Assembly (NCBI GenBank): GCA_016699365.1
Contig: CP064973.1
Span: 575,161-639,160, forward strand
Length of the DNA stretch: 64,000 nt
Direction of reading: 5' to 3'
DNA from: Candidatus Nomurabacteria bacterium
GTDB lineage: Bacteria; Patescibacteriota; Minisyncoccia; Phycocordibacterales; UBA9973
Made by a program: the position numbers and the translations under genes
In this document: positions 3,947-64,000 of the stretch, piece after piece
How the letters are laid out: each line of letters starts with the position of its first letter
How positions within the stretch are numbered: the stretch's first letter is position 1
The notes under the pieces: model-generated
Told to the model about the DNA's origin: nothing
Database searches by the model: none
The model's input: the letters and a program-made list of their open reading frames with translations, nothing else

Positions 3947-4357
3947 ATGTCAGAAAAAACTACAACAAAAAGATATATTGAAACAATCGGACGTCGAAAG
4001 ACAGCAAGTGCTCGCGTAAGACTTACTCCAAGTTCAAAGCTTTCAATAGAAGTAAATGGAAAAGAGCATTCAGCATATTTCCCTACAGACTCACACAGAG
4101 CAATAGTTATCGATCCTTTTGTAAAAGGCAAGATTGATTCAAAGTTTACAATCACAGCTCTCGTAACTGGAGGAGGAATCCACGCTCAAGCTGAAGCAAT
4201 CCGTCACGGTATCGCTCGTGCGATCGTAGAGCTCGATGAAAATGAACACACAAATATCAAAAAACTTGGTTTCCTAAAACGTGATCCTAGAGCAAAAGAG
4301 CGCCGCAAGTTCGGTCTCAAGAAAGCTCGTAAGGCTCCACAATGGAGTAAACGTTAA
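3947..4357 (+). CDS. rpsI: 30S ribosomal protein S9
   Basis: S9 C-terminus ...GGGIHAQAEAIRHGIARAI...RDPRAKERRKFGLKKARKAPQWSKR. Confidence 0.95.
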   Translation: MSEKTTTKRYIETIGRRKTASARVRLTPSSKLSIEVNGKEHSAYFPTDSHRAIVIDPFVKGKIDSKFTITALVTGGGIHAQAEAIRHGIARAIVELDENEHTNIKKLGFLKRDPRAKERRKFGLKKARKAPQWSKR

Positions 4358-4364
4358 AACAAAG

Positions 4365-4390
4365 AAGTCCCGAAAGGGATTTTTTTGTTT
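4365..4390 (+). terminator. rho-independent terminator after rpsI
   Basis: Hairpin AAGTCCC-GAAA-GGGATTT followed by TTTTTTGTTT. Confidence 0.6.
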
Positions 4391-4435
4391 GACAAAATCC
4401 TATTTTACGGTATTATTTAAAAAAATGTACACACA

Positions 4436-4888
4436 ATGAATAAAAAATTGAAAAACCAATTACGCCACAAAGCCGGGATATATTCTCTTTTTTCCAGAGG
4501 TAATATTTTCACAGCTATACTATTGGCGCTATGTATGAGTTTTGTATATGGGATTTTTACCTATGGTACGGTGGAAGATTATCCACTAAATCTTCTGGTG
4601 CCACTAATAGTCGCCCTTTTTATATCTATTGTTTTTGTATACCTACTTGGTAGGGTTACATATTCAGATATAGAATCGGCGTCTGATTCTATGCAGGTTA
4701 AAATAGGTGAAAAACTCCTCCTCATAGAGGTAGAGATCAAAGAGCTTAGCGATAAGATCGCAAAGAACCCAGCTCCAGCACGTTTTCTTGATGAACGTGA
4801 GGCAGACCTCTACGACCTACAAAAGGAGAAGGAAAAGCTCCTTGCGACGCTTGGGGAGCTTCAGAAAGTTCCATTCGAATTCAATTAA
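4436..4888 (+). CDS. hypothetical membrane protein with a C-terminal coiled coil
   Basis: 150 aa; two hydrophobic helices then a charged heptad-like region; no recognised family. Confidence 0.5.
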   Translation: MNKKLKNQLRHKAGIYSLFSRGNIFTAILLALCMSFVYGIFTYGTVEDYPLNLLVPLIVALFISIVFVYLLGRVTYSDIESASDSMQVKIGEKLLLIEVEIKELSDKIAKNPAPARFLDEREADLYDLQKEKEKLLATLGELQKVPFEFN

Positions 4889-6232: not shown

Positions 6233-8128
6233 ATGTCAAAAATCATTGGAATAGACTTGGGAACTACAAACAGTGCTGTATCTATCATCGAAGGTGGACA
6301 GCCAAAAATAATCGAAAACATTGAAGGTAATCGTACGACACCTTCTATTGTTGCTATGGCAAAGAACGGCGATCGTCTCGTCGGACTTTTAGCAAAGCGT
6401 CAGTCTGTTACAAATCCAGAAAATACAATTTACGGCATCAAGCGCTTCATGGGTCACAGATTTGATGATGCAGAAATTCAGAAAGACAGAGGTGTTGCTC
6501 CATACAAAATTGAAAAAGGCGAGAACGATGGAGTTGTTGTAAAAATGTCTGACAAGACTTATCGTCCAGAAGAAATTTCTTCTATGATACTTGCAAAGAT
6601 CAAAGCTGATGTAGAAGCAAAGCTCGGAGAAAAAGTTACAGAAGCGGTTATCACAGTACCAGCGTATTTCAACGACTCACAACGCAAAGCAACAGTAGAC
6701 GCCGGAGCTATCGCAGGCTTGGATGTAAAGCGTATTATCAACGAACCGACAGCAGCAGCTCTTGCATACGGATTCAATACTAAAAAAGATGAAAAGATTG
6801 TTGTGTACGACTTCGGAGGAGGAACTTTCGATGTGTCTGTACTAGAAGTTGGAAACGATGTTATCGAAGTAAAGTCTACTGACGGAGACTCTCACATGGG
6901 TGGAGAAGATATTGATCAGAAAATCATCAAATGGATCGCCGAAGAATTCAAAAAAGAATCCGGTGTAGATATAACAAAAGATGTTCTTGCTCTTCAGCGT
7001 TTGAAGGAAGCTGCTGAGAAGGCAAAGCATGAACTTTCTACTACAACAGAAACTGAAATCAATATTCCATTTATTACTTCTACGGCTTCAGGACCTCAAC
7101 ACTTACTGATCAAGATGAGTCGCGCGCAACTAGAAAGTTTGGCCGATGAATTCGTGTCTCGTTCTATCGAGATCACAAAACGTGCAATCGAAGCTTCACC
7201 ATTTAAAATTGGTGATATAAACGAAATCATAATGGTTGGAGGTCAGACTCGTATGCCAAAGATTATTGAAGAGGTAAAGAAACTTTTTGGTAAAGAGCCA
7301 AATCGTTCTATCAACCCAGACGAAGTTGTAGCTCTCGGAGCTGCAGTGCAAGGTGGAGTTTTGAAAGGTGATGTACGAGATGTGCTACTTCTAGATGTTA
7401 TCCCACTATCACTTGGAATTGAGACTTTGGGAGGTATCGCAACAAAGCTTGTTGAACGAAATACAACTATTCCGACATCTAAGTCACAGATATTCTCGAC
7501 CGCAGCCGACAATCAAACATCTGTAGAAATTCATATTTCTCAGGGTGAACGTCAAATGGCTTCCGACAACAAATCTCTAGGAAGATTTATCTTGGACGGA
7601 ATCCCGCCTGCACCTCGAGGTATGCCTCAGGTTGAAGTTACTTTTGATGTTGATGCAAACGGAATCCTTTCTGTAACTGCAAAAGACAAGACTTCTGGCA
7701 AGACTCAGTCTATCCGCATCGAAGCATCAAGTGGTCTTACAGACGAAGAGGTCAAGAAAATGCAAAAAGACGCAGAACTTCATGCAGAAGAAGATAAAAA
7801 GAAAAAAGACGCAGTTGATATAAAAAATACTACAGAGATGATTCTCTACACTGCTGAAAAAGCTCTCAAAGATAGCGAAGGTAAAGTATCTGATGAAATA
7901 AAGAACGGAGTTCAATCAAAGATCGATGCACTCAAGGCTGTAAAGGATGGAGACGACATGGAACAAATCAAAAAAGCTACAGAAGAACTTTCAAGCGAAA
8001 TGAGTAAAATCGGTGAGGCTATGCAAAAGGCAAATGCTGAAGCTACTCCAAACACGGAGGCAGAATCTGAGCCAAAAACAGAGGAACCGATTCGTGATGC
8101 AGAGACAGGTGAGAGTGAAGTAAAATAA
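6233..8128 (+). CDS. dnaK: molecular chaperone DnaK (Hsp70)
   Basis: Start taken at [16 protein letters not shown], not the upstream in-frame ATG at 6182; Hsp70 motifs [16 protein letters not shown], acidic C-terminal tail. Confidence 0.97.
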
Positions 8129-20389: not shown

Positions 20390-23373
20390 ATGGATAAATA
20401 CATACAAAGCATATCTAAAAAATACTTAGATACTCAAACAAGTGAAATGGGATATCGTACGGATTTTGAAAATTTTCTCGAAACTATTTTTTCAAAAGAG
20501 CAAAAATACCATATTCATCATGATGCAAAAGCTGTGGGTGGAAATAAGCCTGATTTCGTTGTACTTAAAAACCAAATACCAGTTTTGTATATTGAAAATA
20601 AAGATATTGGTATTGATTTAGATAAAATAGAGAAGTCTAATCAGATGGATAGATATTTTGGATATGATAACCTTATTTTGACTGACCAAATAGAATTTAG
20701 ATTTTATCGAAACGGAGAAAAATATGATGAATCAATTAAAATCGCAACATACGATAAATCAAATAGAACGATTAATCCTATCCCAGAAAATTTTACACTT
20801 CTAGAAAAAACTATTATAGATTTCACTCTTTCTCACAAAGAACCAATTAAACGAGGGAAGCGTCTTGCTCAAATTATGGGTGGAAAAGCTCAACGCATTC
20901 GTGACAATGTTTGTGACATGCTTACTTCTAATAATGAAAAATATGCAGAACTTTTAAATATAAAAAAAGTAGTTACTGAAAATCTTGTTTCGAATTTAAA
21001 AGATGAAGACTTTGCTGATATGTACGCGCAAACCCTTGTATATGGACTTTTTGCGGCTCGGTATAATGATAAGACAAATGATACTTTTTCTCGTGCTGAA
21101 GCTCGAGATTTGGTTCCAAAAACAAACCCATTCCTACATTCTTTTTTTGATCACATCGCAGGAGCGTCTTTTCCTGATAGATTGCGGTTTATTGTAGACG
21201 AACTTTGCGAAGTTTTTTCTCATGCAGATATTCAAAAAATTCTTCATGATTTTTATGGAAAAGAAAAAGATAATAAAGATCCAATAATTCATTTTTATGA
21301 AGATTTCTTGAAAGAATATGATTCAAAAAAGAAGATGGAAATGGGAGTTTTTTATACTCCTCGTCAAGTTGTGAAGTTTATTGTGCGTTCTGTTGATGAA
21401 ATTTTGAAAAAAGAATTTGGTCTTGCTAAAGGTCTTGCTGACGCAGAGAAAATTAAAATAAATAAAAAAGAAATCTATCAAGCTCAAAAAAGAACAAAGG
21501 CTGAAGAAAAGAAAGATGGTTCAATAATAGAAGTTCAAAAAGAATATCACAAGGTACAGGTTTTGGATATAGCGACAGGAACAGGAACATTTTTAAACGA
21601 AGTTATTGAACATATTCACAAGAGCTTTATAGGTCAAGAAGGGCGTTGGGAGAGTTATGTTAAAGAAAACCTTTTACCTCGCCTTCACGGTTTTGAGCTT
21701 ATGATGGCTTCATACACAATTGCGCATTTAAAGCTTGGGATGACTTTATTTGATTCTGGGGTTACTAATTTAAACCAACGTTTGGGTGTTTATTTGACAA
21801 ATACACTCGATGAGCCAAAAGACTATTCAAATCAAGGTTCACTTTTTGGATTTATGGATGCTATTGCTGAAGAGTCAAAAAGTGCTTCAAGGGTAAAATC
21901 TGAATATCCAATAATGTGTGTAGTAGGAAATCCGCCGTATTCCATTAGTTCTAGCAACAAGGGTGAATATATTACTGACTTAATTAATGTATATAAAACA
22001 AAACTAAAAGAAAAAAATATACAACCAATTTCAGATGATTATATTAAATTTATTAGATTTGCTGAAAACCTAATAGAAAAAAATAACTCCGGAGTTGTTG
22101 CAATGATTACAAATAATTCTTTTATTGACGGGATTATTCATAGGCAAATGAGAAAACATTTACTCGAGACTTTTAATACCATTTACATACTTAATTTAAG
22201 TCCTAGGAATCATAAAGAAGATCAAAATGTTTTTGATATCAAACAAGGTGTTTCAATAAATATTTTTGTTAAAAACTCGAAAAAAGACAAAGTTTTAGGA
22301 GATGTTTTTTATGCAGAGATAGCTGCGAAAAGAGAAGAGAAGTTTCGGGTATTGGATGATAATAATATAAAGTATGAAAAGTTAGACTATTCAGATCCAT
22401 ATTATTTTTTTGTTCCAAAGGATTTCTCAAATATTAAGGAATACAGCAAAGGATTTATTTTATCGGACATTTTTATGCATCAAAATGCTGGATGTGCTAC
22501 TGGTAAAGATGATCTATTGGTAAATTTTAACAAAAAGATTTAACCGATAAATTAAACAATAAAAATATTATATTTGATGAATCTGATATCGTTGAATATA
22601 ATTATAGGATATTTGATAGAAGATACTTTGTGTATGATAATAAACTTATACAAAGGTTACGGGAAAAAATAATGAAGCATTTTAAAAATGATAATATTGG
22701 ATTAATTTCAACAAAAATATTATCAAGTGACTCATACAAACACTCTTTCTTAACTAACCTTGTGGGAGATAGATGTCTTATATCAAATAAGGGTAAAGAG
22801 GCAAATTATTATTTTCCTTTATATCTTTACACAGATCAAAATGAAAAAATACCAAACTTGAATAAAGAAATTTGGAATAAGATAAATGAATTAGTGGGGG
22901 AAACTAAACCAGAAAATATTTTGGATTATATTTATGCTGTCTTACATTCGTCTACATATCGTAACGAGTATAAAGAATTCTTAAAAATTGATTTTCCTAG
23001 AATTCCATATCCAGAAAACAAAGAAGAATTTTGGAAACTTGTTCCACTTGGCACAAAACTGCGTGATTTGCATCTTATGACTGCTCCAGAATGCAATAAA
23101 CTTATTACTACTTACGGTATTAAAGGCAGTGATACTGTTGAAAAAATTATATATAAAAATGAAAAGGTGTATATAAACGAAACTCAATACTTCGGGGGTG
23201 TCCCAGAAGTTGCATGGAATTTCTATATAGGAGGTTATCAACCCGCTCAAAAATGGTTAAAAGACCGAAAAGGACGAACTCTTACTAATTCTGATATTGA
23301 GCATTATCAGAAAATTATTGTAGTTTTGGTGGAGACAGATAAGATTATGAAGAAAATAGATCAGTTATTATAG
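20390..23373 (+). CDS. MmeI-like Type IIL restriction-modification enzyme (PD-ExK nuclease, gamma-class N6-adenine methyltransferase, target-recognition C-terminus), interrupted by an apparent -1 frameshift
   Basis: N-terminal nuclease motif KPDFVV...IENKD; methyltransferase motifs GVFYTPRQVV, LDIATGTGTF (motif I), VVGNPPYS (motif IV); C-terminal GGYQPAQKWLKDRKGR. The ORFs 20390-22543 and 22630-23373 fuse into about 965 aa if the A5 run at 22532-22536 is A6 (...NFNKKDLTDKLNNKNIIFDESD...). Confidence 0.75.
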
Positions 23374-23376
23374 AAT

Positions 23377-23955
23377 ATGTCTATGAATACTAAAGACAGT
23401 AAAATTGTATATGTGTTCATTGACGCATCCAATCTATGGCAGTCACAAAAAGTGAAAGGTAGGATGTTTGATTTTGAGAAATTAAAAATATTCTTAAAAG
23501 AAAAATTTAATGCTAAGGAGCTCCAGATATTTTACTATACCGCTTATCCGAAAGAAGGGACACGAGAACAAAGTCAAGATGGAAAACATAAATTTTACAC
23601 ATATCTTAAAAAGGGACTTGGTTTTATTGTGCGTAAAAAGGAATTAAAAAGAATTGTTCAGCATAGTGATTTGGGTGATTCAATACAGGAAAAAGGAAAT
23701 ATGGATGTTGAAATGACCATTGATGCGATTCATCATTGTAAAAAGTACGACTCCGCGGTTCTTTTTACGGGAGATTCTGATTTTCTCGCTTTAGTTAATT
23801 ACTTGAGAAACGGTGATAAAAAAGTATATATTTTTTCTTCAAAAAACAATGTGTCTCAAGAATTAAGAACAGGGAGTGACGGTTATTTTGATGTTTTAAA
23901 TATTAGTCAGGATATTTGGGGTAGAGATCTTAAATATAAGGAAAATAAGACCTAA
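23377..23955 (+). CDS. NYN-domain (PIN-like) nuclease
   Basis: IVYVFIDASNLW... and LFTGDSDF acidic-residue motifs characteristic of the NYN/LabA family; 192 aa. Confidence 0.7.
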   Translation: MSMNTKDSKIVYVFIDASNLWQSQKVKGRMFDFEKLKIFLKEKFNAKELQIFYYTAYPKEGTREQSQDGKHKFYTYLKKGLGFIVRKKELKRIVQHSDLGDSIQEKGNMDVEMTIDAIHHCKKYDSAVLFTGDSDFLALVNYLRNGDKKVYIFSSKNNVSQELRTGSDGYFDVLNISQDIWGRDLKYKENKT

Positions 23956-24075
23956 AAAACAAAGTAGCCCTCCTTTCGGAGGGCTACCCTTGGATGTAAT
24001 ACCCTTAAAGTTTATGGTAAACCTTAAGACAAACTGAGTATATCAAATCTATTCAAAAAGTCAAAGTTTTCCACA

Positions 24076-28083: not shown

Positions 28084-28314
28084 ATGCAAGAACACCCAAA
28101 CAATCCATTGCAAGGCAAGACGCTTGAGTTCATACTCACGTTTTTAGTTGAGCAATATGGCTGGGAAGAGCTCGGCAGCCAGATCAATATCAATTGTTTT
28201 ATAAATGACCCAAGTATCAAGTCTAGTCTTACTTTTTTACGCAGAACTCCTTGGGCCAGAAAAAAGGTTGAGGATTTGTATATTTACACCGCGAAGAAAA
28301 TGAACATAAAGTAA
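28084..28314 (+). CDS. VF530-family (DUF2132) small protein
   Basis: ...[60 protein letters not shown] matches this family consensus. Confidence 0.65.
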
Positions 28315-28322
28315 ATCTGATT

Positions 28323-28829
28323 ATGCCTACTATTTTGGACTCAAGAGAGAAAAAGTTTTTTGCTATTAGAAAAACACGCAATGGAAAAGGTGTTTTTACA
28401 CGTATTGGTTTCGGAGAAGGAAAAAGATTGTTCGAAGTAAAAGGTAGATTTGTGACCTGCGATGAAGATGATGATATGGATGAAACAGAAAGGTCAAATG
28501 CATACCGATTCGACAGAGACCTTTTTATTAGCCCAAAAGACAGATTGGCTGATATGGTCAATCACTCGTGTACGCCAAACGCCAAAGTTGTTAAAGATAA
28601 CGACAAGCTCTATGTATATTCAATCAGTGAGATATTAAAATGGAGTGAGGTTTTTATTGACTATTCGACGATCATAGCCAAGGATGATATTTGGACGATG
28701 AAATGTAACTGTGGAAGTGATAAATGCAGAAAGATTGTAAAGAATTTTGCAAAATTATCCAAAAAAACCCAAGATATATACAAGAAAAACAAAATTGTTC
28801 CGGATTTCATTTTAAAAATAAGAGGGTAG
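28323..28829 (+). CDS. SET-domain protein (putative protein-lysine methyltransferase)
   Basis: NHSCTPN (the NHSCxPN SET signature), ...FIDY..., and a post-SET Cys cluster CNCGSDKC. Confidence 0.8.
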   Translation: MPTILDSREKKFFAIRKTRNGKGVFTRIGFGEGKRLFEVKGRFVTCDEDDDMDETERSNAYRFDRDLFISPKDRLADMVNHSCTPNAKVVKDNDKLYVYSISEILKWSEVFIDYSTIIAKDDIWTMKCNCGSDKCRKIVKNFAKLSKKTQDIYKKNKIVPDFILKIRG

Positions 28830-28870
28830 TATGCTGTACTATTTATCAAAATTAGTTTAATATTGGGGAT

Positions 28871-29008
28871 ATGGCAAAAAGAACAAGTCAGGATATCAAG
28901 CCTCAAAATCATCACCCTCGCAAGACAAAGAAGCGTCTTGCTGCAAAGAAGGCGATGCTTGCGGCTCGAAAGCCTAAGTTAAATCGAAAAAGCAAGAGAA
29001 GAAAGTAA
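28871..29008 (+). CDS. small Lys/Arg-rich peptide (45 aa), histone-H1-tail-like
   Basis: MAKRTSQDIKPQNHHPRKTKKRLAAKKAMLAARKPKLNRKSKRRK; followed by the terminator AACCG-GAG-CGGTT plus TTTTTGTTT; below the ORF cutoff. Confidence 0.4.
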   Translation: MAKRTSQDIKPQNHHPRKTKKRLAAKKAMLAARKPKLNRKSKRRK

Positions 29009-29069
29009 ATTCTCGCAAAAACCCTCATAACCGGAGCGGTTTTTTGTTTGATGGATTAGTAAAGCAAGA

Positions 29070-29486
29070 TTGTTGTATAATAAGGATATGAAAGGATACA
29101 AAGACAATATAGAAAAATTAACACAAGAAAACGAAGCTTTTCGCAAGGTTTTATATACAGGCAAGCACTCACAGCTTGTATTGATGAGTCTTTTACCAGG
29201 TGAAGAGATTGGTCTTGAAGTGCACACTGAAAACGATCAATTTTTTAGATTTGAAAAGGGGAATGGTAAAGTGCTGATTGATGGCAATACTTATGATGTG
29301 ACTGACGGTGATGCTGTTGTTGTTCCAAGTGGCGCAGAACACAATGTTATAAATACTTCTGATACTGAAAGTTTAAAGCTGTACACAATATATTCTCCAG
29401 CTCATCACAAAGACGGAATCATACGTGAGACAAAAGCTATCGCCATGGCCGAAGAAGCAGAATTTGATGGAGTAACTACTGAATAA
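29070..29486 (+). CDS. cupin-domain protein
   Basis: GxxxxxHxH-like cupin motif 1 (GLEVHTEND) and motif 2 (VVVPSGAEHNVINT). Confidence 0.7.
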   Translation: MLYNKDMKGYKDNIEKLTQENEAFRKVLYTGKHSQLVLMSLLPGEEIGLEVHTENDQFFRFEKGNGKVLIDGNTYDVTDGDAVVVPSGAEHNVINTSDTESLKLYTIYSPAHHKDGIIRETKAIAMAEEAEFDGVTTE

Positions 29487-33096: not shown

Positions 33097-33357
33097 ATGC
33101 CAGCAAAAAAAGCAAATTCTGCATTTATGAAACCTATGAATGTTAGTGAGGAACTAGCAGCTGTAGTAGGAAAGGGTCCAATGCCTCGTTCTGAGGTTGT
33201 AAAAGCTCTATGGGTATACATCAAGAAGAATGATCTTCAAGACCCAAAGAATAAGAGAAATATAATTGCAGATGCAAATCTAAAGGCTGTGTTTGGAGGG
33301 AAGGAAGTAGTGAACATGTTCGAAATGACAAAGCTCGTTTCAAAACACCTTTCATAA
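33097..33357 (+). CDS. SWIB/MDM2-domain protein
   Basis: 86 aa; ...LWVYIKKNDLQDPKNKRNIIADANLKAVFG...FEMTKLVSKHL is the canonical SWIB pattern. Confidence 0.8.
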   Translation: MPAKKANSAFMKPMNVSEELAAVVGKGPMPRSEVVKALWVYIKKNDLQDPKNKRNIIADANLKAVFGGKEVVNMFEMTKLVSKHLS

Positions 33358-43348: not shown

Positions 43349-43708
43349 ATGGCAACGAAAAAAGCAACAAAAAAATCAGTGTCAAAGAGCGAAGAATTCG
43401 CTGTTATTTCTACTGGTGGAAAACAATACAAAGTAAGTGCTGGGGATGTCCTAGTAATCGAAAAACTACCTGGTACATACAGTGCAGGGGATGAAATAGT
43501 ATTCGACAAGGTATTACTTGTAGATAACGGTAAAGATACAACTATCGGAACTCCTCACATATCTGGAGCGAAAGTCACAGCAAGTTTTATTGAAAACGGA
43601 CGACATCAGAAAGTCATAGTGATGAAATACAAACCAAAGAGTCGCTACAAGAAAACAAACGGCCACAGACAAGAATTCACAAAAGTTAAAATCACAGTTA
43701 TAAAATAA
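43349..43708 (+). CDS. rplU: 50S ribosomal protein L21
   Basis: ...FAVISTGGKQYKVSAGDVLVIEKL... L21 signature after a Lys-rich N-terminal extension. Confidence 0.9.
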   Translation: MATKKATKKSVSKSEEFAVISTGGKQYKVSAGDVLVIEKLPGTYSAGDEIVFDKVLLVDNGKDTTIGTPHISGAKVTASFIENGRHQKVIVMKYKPKSRYKKTNGHRQEFTKVKITVIK

Positions 43709-63842: not shown

Positions 63843-64000
63843 ATGGCACATCGAAAAGCGGGCGGATCAGCTAAAAACCTAAAAGACTCAAATCCTAAGT
63901 ACCTTGGCACGAAGAAATACGACGGCCAGGCTGTTGGTGCTGGAAATATAATAATCAGACAGCGAGGATCTAAGATACTATCTGGAGCAGGAACAAAAAT
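63843..64000 (+). CDS. rpmA: 50S ribosomal protein L27 (5' part; continues past the window end)
   Basis: [44 protein letters not shown]... matches the L27 N-terminus. Confidence 0.85.

Follow-up and report, generated by a model that had tools for sequence, protein, structure and literature searches.

A class-wide family of tiny, highly basic proteins and its occasional association with SET-domain genes in Paceibacteria-type genomes

Is a small basic protein that is encoded directly downstream of a bacterial SET-domain gene the substrate of the SET enzyme, or simply its neighbour? The question is raised by a locus in the genome of a Candidatus Nomurabacteria bacterium (GenBank assembly GCA_016699365.1, contig CP064973.1), of which we analysed the 64,000 nucleotides from position 575,161 to 639,160 of the forward strand (hereafter the window; coordinates are those of the window unless another locus is named). 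A preliminary description of this DNA had reported a SET-domain methyltransferase gene followed by a 45-aa open reading frame (ORF) and, by analogy with Chlamydia, had suggested that the peptide was a dedicated substrate or a nucleoid-associated partner of the enzyme. The explanation that we favour, at a probability of about 0.6, is that the locus consists of two separate neighbouring units: a VF530-SET gene pair and the autonomous gene of a tiny basic protein that is found class-wide. The features concerned are the following:

28084..28314, + strand: gene of a VF530-family small DNA-binding protein, 76 aa (Pfam PF09905, E 1.9e-33)
28323..28829, + strand: SET and post-SET lysine-methyltransferase-like gene, 168 aa (Pfam SET, motifs, model)
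28560..28580, + strand: NHSCTPN SET signature, read from the sequence (N80, H81, C83 and N86 invariant in an alignment of 24 sequences)
28704..28727, + strand: post-SET cysteine cluster CNCGSDKC, read from the sequence (C128, C130 and C135 invariant in the alignment)
28858..28863, + strand: -10 box TAATAT, read from the sequence, ending 7 nt before the ATG of the peptide gene
28871..29008, + strand: gene of the 45-aa highly basic protein (sequence MAKRTSQDIKPQNHHPRKTKKRLAAKKAMLAARKPKLNRKSKRRK; homologues, codon signature)
29029..29047, + strand: terminator-like hairpin AACCG-GAG-CGGTT followed by a T-run (modest; fold dG -10.8 kcal/mol, z -2.2)

The small ORF is present as described, apart from a spacer to the SET gene of 41 nt (28830-28870) instead of 42 and a lysine and arginine content that we recounted as 42% (12 K and 7 R of 45 residues, net charge about +18) instead of 40%. 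It had been taken as unannotated. The identical protein is listed by NCBI as 'hypothetical protein KBD26_01505 [Candidatus Pacebacteria bacterium]', although the gene does escape gene callers often, for example in L006 and in L160-165 (loci homologous to that of the window are labelled L001 to L165). A word-indexed protein search with the peptide returned only four clusters, and only 34 representatives were recovered at E<=1e-3 among 1.8 billion proteins, a scarcity that fits the frequent omission of the gene by gene callers. At the nucleotide level the family is much larger: 75 loci came from an alignment scan of GTDB species representatives and at least 70 from JGI metagenomes, giving at least 148 loci. 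Collapsing them at 80% nucleotide identity left 107 lineages (at least), with about 3-4 kb of flank on each side of the peptide gene and 630 kb of flanking DNA in all. The proteins have 33-50 aa and, in an alignment of 78 distinct homologues, the consensus MAKRxSQDIKNKxSxSRKTKKRLAxKxAMLAA, in which M1, K18, K21, R22 and K26 are invariant. The loci are titled Patescibacteria, Paceibacterota, Kaiser-, Nomura-, Vogel-, Taylor-, Yanofsky- or Lipton-bacteria, or carry generic pipeline labels, and we read all of them as Patescibacteria of the Paceibacteria type. Among the loci L012-L085, the titles 'uncultured Candidatus Saccharibacteria' and 'uncultured Gammaproteobacteria' are frequent (L069, L076 and L079 are examples, and one such locus is a contig of 678 kb); they are probably pipeline labels on metagenome-assembled genomes of Patescibacteria. 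The family has no match in Pfam, NCBIfam or the PDB (profile search of the latter to E<=10). In two database proteins, P0036 (130 aa) and P0042 (118 aa), a GIY-YIG domain stands in frame with the MAKR... peptide, either as a real fusion or as a read-through gene call, and a small GIY-YIG protein neighbours the peptide in nine loci (L013, L014, L016, L033, L037, L080, L103, L144 and L156). Fusions gave no functional clue, the longer database matches being upstream extensions or GIY-YIG read-throughs and none of them containing a SET domain.

The codon pattern of the family argues that the ORF is a genuine gene, subject to strong purifying selection. Among 76 distinct genes with 33-55% guanine+cytosine (GC), synonymous codons vary freely at conserved residues (TTG, CTT or CTC for L23; CGT, CGC or CGA for R22), and frame, start and stop are preserved in about 150 loci over the same GC range. 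Within the window clade, by which we mean the relatives whose SET proteins are 85-70% identical to that of the window, the peptides are identical or nearly so and the ratio of non-synonymous to synonymous differences per site (pN/pS) is 0-0.24. The coding signature that the preliminary description had proposed to look for is therefore there. The peptide gene is the slowest-evolving gene of the locus and the SET gene the fastest: together with the spacer before it, the peptide gene forms the best-conserved island of the window clade (nucleotide identity 0.91-0.99, vs 0.72-0.85 for SET). In the same clade the synonymous differences per site (pS) of the peptide gene are also low, 0.04-0.28 over 28871-28942 in comparisons with L004, L007 and L011, vs 0.41-0.78 for the adjacent SET gene, and the A-rich codons 2-6 (GCA AAA AGA GCA AGT) keep their nucleotides throughout the family; selection on a leaderless 5' end, codon preference and recombination are candidate causes of the low pS. 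An AlphaFold2 model of the peptide has one helix, at residues 16-33, with flexible basic tails on both sides.

The peptide gene also appears to be expressed on its own. The -10 box of the window belongs to a pattern seen in 90 of 129 distinct upstream regions of the family, namely a TAnnnT box, often TG-extended, that ends 5-9 nt (mode 7) before the ATG; a Shine-Dalgarno-like motif occurs in only 3% of these regions, and the GGGGA beside the window ATG is not conserved in L007. The spacer 28830-28870 is 100, 80 and 88% identical to those of L004, L007 and L011, vs 85, 72 and 75% for the SET genes. Since so little sequence separates the -10 box from the ATG, the mRNA is probably leaderless or near-leaderless. 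The starts of neighbouring genes, crudely placed, peak at a gap of 6 nt as well (90 of 632), and leaderless expression may be common in Paceibacteria-type genomes. Downstream, the hairpin that the preliminary description had called the peptide's own terminator does exist and is only modest by its folding energy; across the family, a hairpin with a T-run lies within 100 nt downstream of 45% of members vs 7% of controls. With its own promoter and terminator, the peptide gene is thus not built as a member of a SET operon. Obligate operon structure or translational coupling with SET is unlikely as well, the -10 box preceding the ATG even where the two genes overlap.

How regularly, then, do the two genes stand together? 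Seen from the peptide, only 4 of the 107 lineages carry a SET gene in the flanks (the window clade, L060/L159, L115 and L137), and about 96% of peptide lineages have none nearby, which does not agree with a 'dedicated' partner. Seen from the SET gene of the window type, the order VF530-SET-peptide-cupin is kept in the window clade, and no peptide gene is found within 5 kb in L009/L010, L087/L088 and L089 (SET 52-40% identical), that is in three of the five window-type SET lineages examined; L086 was too short and was left out of this distance comparison. The SET proteins of L060/L159, L115 and L137 belong to a second subfamily, which is 20% identical to the window SET and does not carry its C-terminal extension. 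In L060/L159 the two genes share an ATGA, in which the SET stop and the peptide ATG overlap, and a TATACT box sits 7 nt upstream, within the last SET codons; in L115 the SET gene is adjacent and divergent; in L137 it is separated from the peptide gene by a distance in the range of 1.7-5.2 kb that L008 and L160 share. In L163-165 an uncalled peptide gene starts 8 nt after the stop of an L060-type SET gene, whose stop codon is used by the box TGTATAAT, and in L160-162 an uncalled peptide gene lies 5.2 kb downstream of such a SET gene. The peptides of L060, L159 and L160-165 form one subclade (MSxGRIxPI), so the L160-165 cases are not independent of L060, and three further members of this subclade (L055, L067 and L072) have no SET gene nearby. 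Moreover, L060-type SET proteins abound, 2210 clusters being found at E<=1e-10, with many from Paceibacterota, Minisyncoccia or Kaiserbacteria and some from other phyla, so that some adjacency is expected by chance. We conclude that the linkage is real in two clades, across two SET subfamilies, and absent from most peptide lineages and most window-type SET lineages. The preliminary description had staked the pairing on a coding signature in the small ORF and on its conservation with SET genes in relatives; the first proved strong, and the second partial. Two side observations concern the L160-L165 loci: a 194-aa protein precedes SET in all of them, with a TMEM175 match in L163-165 only (the protein of L160-162 has no Pfam match and no tblastn match to that of L163-165), and a cold-shock gene is near SET in both L160-162 and L163-165.

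The SET protein itself is what it was claimed to be. The Pfam SET domain (PF00856) is matched over model positions 1-105 of 105, at 44.5 bits where the cut-off is 22.4 (E 2.3e-11), and both the NHSCTPN signature and the CNCGSDKC cluster lie in invariant columns of an alignment of 24 sequences (the window SET, 22 database homologues and one distant SET). Invariant residues are G23, G41, N80, H81, C83, N86, E109, D113, Y114, C128, C130 and C135, so that the catalytic and cofactor motifs GxG (G21/G23), NHSCxPN and (E)xxxDY are invariant or nearly so. An AlphaFold2 model of high confidence (predicted local distance difference test score 92.3, predicted template-modelling score 0.87) resembles the SET domains of MLL1-4 most closely in a Foldseek search, with a template-modelling (TM) score of about 0.66, and matches the SET domains of MLL1-4, NSD, ASH1L and SETD2 at a probability of 1.00; by sequence, the PDB matches are KMT2A/B/D, and BurB (9l4t/9l4v) is among both the sequence and the fold matches. 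Thus the SET domain is genuine in fold and motifs and looks catalytically complete, and it would be expected to act as a methyltransferase. Only 23 homologues of the window type were found, assigned to Pacebacteria wherever the source names an organism; they share a clade-specific C-terminal extension, FxKLPK...IVPxYILKI, which is modelled as a helix pair at residues 147-165. The VF530 gene, overlooked in the preliminary description, ends 8 nt before the SET gene in the same direction, and the two probably form one operon. VF530 lies directly upstream of SET in L005, L006/7, L011 and L012 as well; in L004 it is in two fragments (4225-4464), and it is intact in L005, which encodes an identical SET protein. 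It was not found at any other SET or peptide locus examined.

Around the peptide gene, immediate neighbours are varied (86 Pfam families upstream and 75 downstream in about 75 loci), and a few of them recur: an RGG/treble-clef zinc-finger protein in 14 loci, ABC-F proteins in 13, a DEAD-box helicase in 11, Obg in 9 and, further, cold-shock domain (CSD) proteins. These form an RNA or translation theme, beside which SWIB, SET and VF530 form a DNA or chromatin-like one. The commonest neighbour, about 175 aa long, combines an RGG-rich N-terminus with a treble-clef zinc finger (PF23477); it is present in about eight lineages and usually adjacent (L013, L014, L036, L042, L052, L057, L059, L062, L068, L073, L078, L091, L123 and L150). 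In L052 and L150 the peptide gene stands directly between the PF23477 gene and the gene of a DEAD-box helicase whose N-terminus is likewise RGG-rich; in L042 the helicase gene directly follows the peptide gene, and the zinc-finger gene is three genes upstream. In the window, the cupin that follows the peptide gene and the SWIB gene that the preliminary description had placed 4 kb downstream are both where Pfam would have them:

29070..29486, + strand: Cupin_2 gene (Pfam 9.2e-17)
33097..33357, + strand: SWIB-domain protein gene (Pfam 2.8e-32), 4.1 kb downstream of the peptide gene

A cupin also adjoins the peptide gene in L008 (cupin 6874-7164; peptide 7192-7314, minus strand). SWIB proteins are linked with chlamydiae; that of the window resembles SWIB modules fused to topoisomerases. 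Within the window clade the SWIB gene stays 3.9-4.1 kb downstream of the peptide gene. Over the whole family, SWIB occurs within three genes of the peptide in 8 loci and was detected with a hidden Markov model (HMM) in 9 peptide-anchored loci. In several loci it lies within about 100 nt and in several orientations, with at least five arrangements (L035, L053/L118, L107, L124 and L151/L153), and in L051/L119 it is 607 nt away. By eye, the SWIB proteins of distant lineages are about 80% identical. The SWIB genes located in five of these loci are:

L035, 4147-4449: SWIB gene
L053, 4192-4449: SWIB gene
L107, 2644-2901: SWIB gene
L124, 3172-3522: SWIB gene
L151, 1001-1276: SWIB gene

A working model may be proposed from these data. 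The first unit, VF530-SET, would encode a small DNA-binding protein and a SET/post-SET lysine-methyltransferase-like enzyme. The second would be the autonomous 45-aa gene, driven by its own -10 box, devoid of a Shine-Dalgarno sequence, closed by the terminator-like hairpin and probably transcribed without a leader. The predicted product has a Lys/Arg-rich N-terminal tail, the 16-33 helix and a basic C-terminal tail, and would act in all these organisms regardless of whether a SET gene is nearby. SET adjacency in the window would then be mainly inherited local gene order within a clade of genus-to-family level. Since the position directly upstream of the peptide gene is occupied repeatedly, by SET genes of two subfamilies, the enzyme may nonetheless methylate the invariant K18, K21 or K26 in SET-adjacent lineages, as an add-on and not as the peptide's raison d'etre. 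We consider the peptide most likely to be an abundant nucleic-acid-binding protein; given the two neighbour themes, we commit to that much only, ribosome or RNA association and nucleoid association appearing about equally likely.

Several observations weigh against this explanation. (i), in L008 (SET 57% identical), the peptide gene is 1.7 kb from a window-type SET gene, on the opposite strand and beside the cupin. (ii), both further look-ups anchored on L060-type SET genes (L163-165 and L160-162) revealed a peptide gene. (iii), 3 of 106 lineages (window clade excluded) have an L060-type SET gene within about 3 kb, and 2 of these are immediately adjacent, where random placement predicts at most 0.84 and at most 0.28, respectively (Poisson p about 0.01-0.05, for 630 kb of flanks, an assumed genome of 0.75 Mb and at most one gene copy); recurrence over random placement is thus borderline. 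(iv), no homology or structure match ties the peptide to ribosomes or to DNA.

Three other explanations deserve to be weighed. In the one closest to the original proposal, the two genes form an enzyme-substrate pair: SET would methylate a lysine of the peptide and so tune its binding to DNA or RNA, and adjacency would be selected for co-regulation. The direct upstream position of SET in the window clade is consistent with this, as are the three invariant lysines and the fact that a SET subfamily only 20% identical is again directly upstream of the MSxGRIxPI peptides, overlapping in L060/L159 and 8 nt away in L163-165. Precedents exist. The cpnSET protein of Chlamydophila pneumoniae acts on Hc1 and Hc2, both histone H1-like, Hc1 being methylated, according to two-hybrid and methylation assays (Murata et al. 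2007, reviewed in PMC3980110), and Go1-SET of Methanosarcina methylates MC1-alpha (PMC3980110). The chlamydial case likewise combines a bacterial SET protein with a small Lys-rich protein, and a SWIB protein is encoded in the window too; yet the peptide is 3-4 times smaller than Hc1/Hc2 and has no likeness to them beyond composition, and cpnSET-Hc1/Hc2 rests on biochemistry whereas the window pair is known from a lineage-restricted adjacency. Against Hc1-like, H1-like and histone-tail sequences the peptide scored no better than its shuffles, and it has no homology to known nucleoid protein families in Pfam or NCBIfam. The H1-like analogy of the preliminary description is therefore compositional only, and mimicry of Hc1 or of the histone H3, H4, H2A or H2B tails was rejected. 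Go1-SET, a minimal SET enzyme of a prokaryote that targets one lysine in a native small DNA-binding protein, is a mechanistic template for the enzyme-substrate reading, except that MC1 is folded, archaeal, about 90 aa long and unrelated to the peptide, and that the CPR (candidate phyla radiation) enzyme is known from its sequence and a model. The counts of peptide and SET lineages in which one gene stands without the other argue against a pair, as does the abundance of L060-type SET genes; the adjacent cases inside each SET subfamily may share ancestry, even in abutting pairs the peptide gene retains a -10 box of its own, placed within or across the SET stop codon, and VF530, 8 nt from SET, would make a partner no less plausible than the peptide. 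An enzyme-substrate pair is thus a reasonable hypothesis to which we give less than even odds, well short of our preferred explanation of two separate units.

The converse reading, about as probable in our view, is that SET is unrelated to the peptide and acts on VF530, on another protein or on a small molecule such as methionine derivatives, in the manner of BurB. The co-directional VF530 gene, conserved with SET in the clade, points in this direction, as do the presence of BurB among the matches and the contrast between the fastest- and the slowest-evolving gene of the locus. Against it stand three observations: none of the other SET loci examined has a VF530 gene, SET recurs next to the peptide, and the enzyme, whose catalytic Tyr and post-SET are intact, finds its closest matches among MLL-type protein-lysine methyltransferases. 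The best of these matches (MLL/KMT2 SET and post-SET, PDB 4z4p and 2w5z; E 2.5e-8, TM about 0.66) share NHSCxPN, the catalytic Tyr and the CxCxxxxC post-SET cluster with the window SET; they are 22-25% identical to it, and the window protein differs in being a stand-alone enzyme of 168 aa with a C-terminal helix pair and no WRAD partners. The peptide is also unlike the H3 tail (shuffle p about 0.5-0.6). Enzymes of the L060 type (annotated as 'SET domain-containing protein-lysine N-methyltransferase', about 135-145 aa) have the same catalytic motifs and also occur outside the CPR, where the peptide family was not found.

A third reading places the peptide in the ribosome, as a lineage-specific protein comparable to bS22, bL37 or bTHX or as a very divergent bL34, the adjacency of SET being incidental or reflecting ribosomal-protein methylation. 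Its size, charge and extreme conservation, greater than that of every neighbouring gene, would fit, and so would the MAK- start with A-rich codons 2-6 throughout the family and the recurrent ABC-F, Obg, DEAD-box, RGG zinc-finger and CSD neighbours. In these respects the peptide is much like the tiny ribosomal proteins bL34, bL36, bS22, bL37 and bTHX, which have 25-50 aa with more than 40% Lys/Arg, are extremely conserved and often stand as single genes. In addition, one report (PMC9297842) describes bS21 as often absent from Parcubacteria. As to bL34, the family consensus is collinear with the E. coli and B. subtilis proteins above shuffles (z 4.5 and 4.0), and an L34 HMM run over about 1 Mb of loci has family members among its best weak matches and detected no canonical L34 there. 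On the other side, the peptide matches no ribosomal protein in Pfam, NCBIfam or PDB profiles and is not enriched beside ribosomal-protein operons. None of 78 members matches Ribosomal_L34 (PF00468) at E<=10, the hhalign probability is 0.1%, and L34 of T. thermophilus and M. tuberculosis do not score. The HGFR motif of L34 is replaced by (S)RKTKK and the rpmH-rnpA synteny is missing: rnpA/Ribonuclease_P is not among the 25 downstream families listed, the others occurring in at most 1 of 76 loci each. Moreover, bL34 is not among the proteins given as missing in a published survey that covered 54 ribosomal proteins in CPR bacteria. We give a ribosomal identity about the same odds as the enzyme-substrate pair, and keep bL34 as a low-probability lead drawn from sequence comparison.

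Other small ribosomal proteins were also considered; bL34, bS22 and bL37 were shuffle-tested, and the others were compared by a weak HMM search only. Both bL37 and bS22 failed the shuffle test; L33, L35, L36, THX, Sra and the E. coli L32 and S21 did not score as HMM targets; and B. subtilis L32, L33, L35 and S21, which served solely as tblastn probes, gave no match. The peptide is not bL27, as an N-terminal mimic or an orthologue, because canonical L27 is encoded in the same window, as is L21:

552-659: rpmJ (L36), canonical
43397-43702: rplU (L21), canonical
63843-63989: start of rpmA (L27), canonical N-terminus, gene cut by the window end

The window as a whole has a GC content of about 37%, with a dip to 0.29 at 22001-24000 (vs about 0.37 elsewhere), and its closest database matches are labelled Candidatus Pacebacteria. 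Membership in a defence system was rejected, PADLOC giving no match to any.

Finally, that the small ORF is a chance frame or a non-coding RNA element is hardly credible: the low synonymous divergence of the window clade could hint at constraint on the nucleotides, but the amino acids are conserved family-wide while third codon positions are free, the frame is kept with its start and stop, and Rfam has no match.

Returning to the two separate units, what is new here is the family of the peptide, previously undescribed, and not a kind of system; SET proteins acting on small basic nucleoid proteins have precedents. It is tempting to combine the readings and to imagine that the peptide belongs, unrecognised so far, to the core of Paceibacteria ribosomes or nucleoids, and that its invariant lysines are the native substrate of two SET subfamilies. 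We hold this to be improbable; if true, it would provide a minimal free-standing 'histone-tail-like' writer-substrate module and explain the widespread small SET enzymes of non-pathogenic bacteria. Native substrates are known for a minority of bacterial SET proteins only, most work having dealt with pathogen effectors that act on host histones; an enzyme of 168 aa and a peptide short enough to synthesise (45 aa) make this locus concretely and cheaply testable. The fixed placement of the -10 box, at 6-8 nt from the ATG in 70% of family members, further suggests that leaderless expression is common in Paceibacteria-type genomes. Above all, a family that is easily missed turns out, in much of the CPR, to rank among the best-conserved genes of its surroundings, and this strong conservation and wide spread make the peptide a candidate for a missing component of the reduced ribosomes or the nucleoid of these bacteria.

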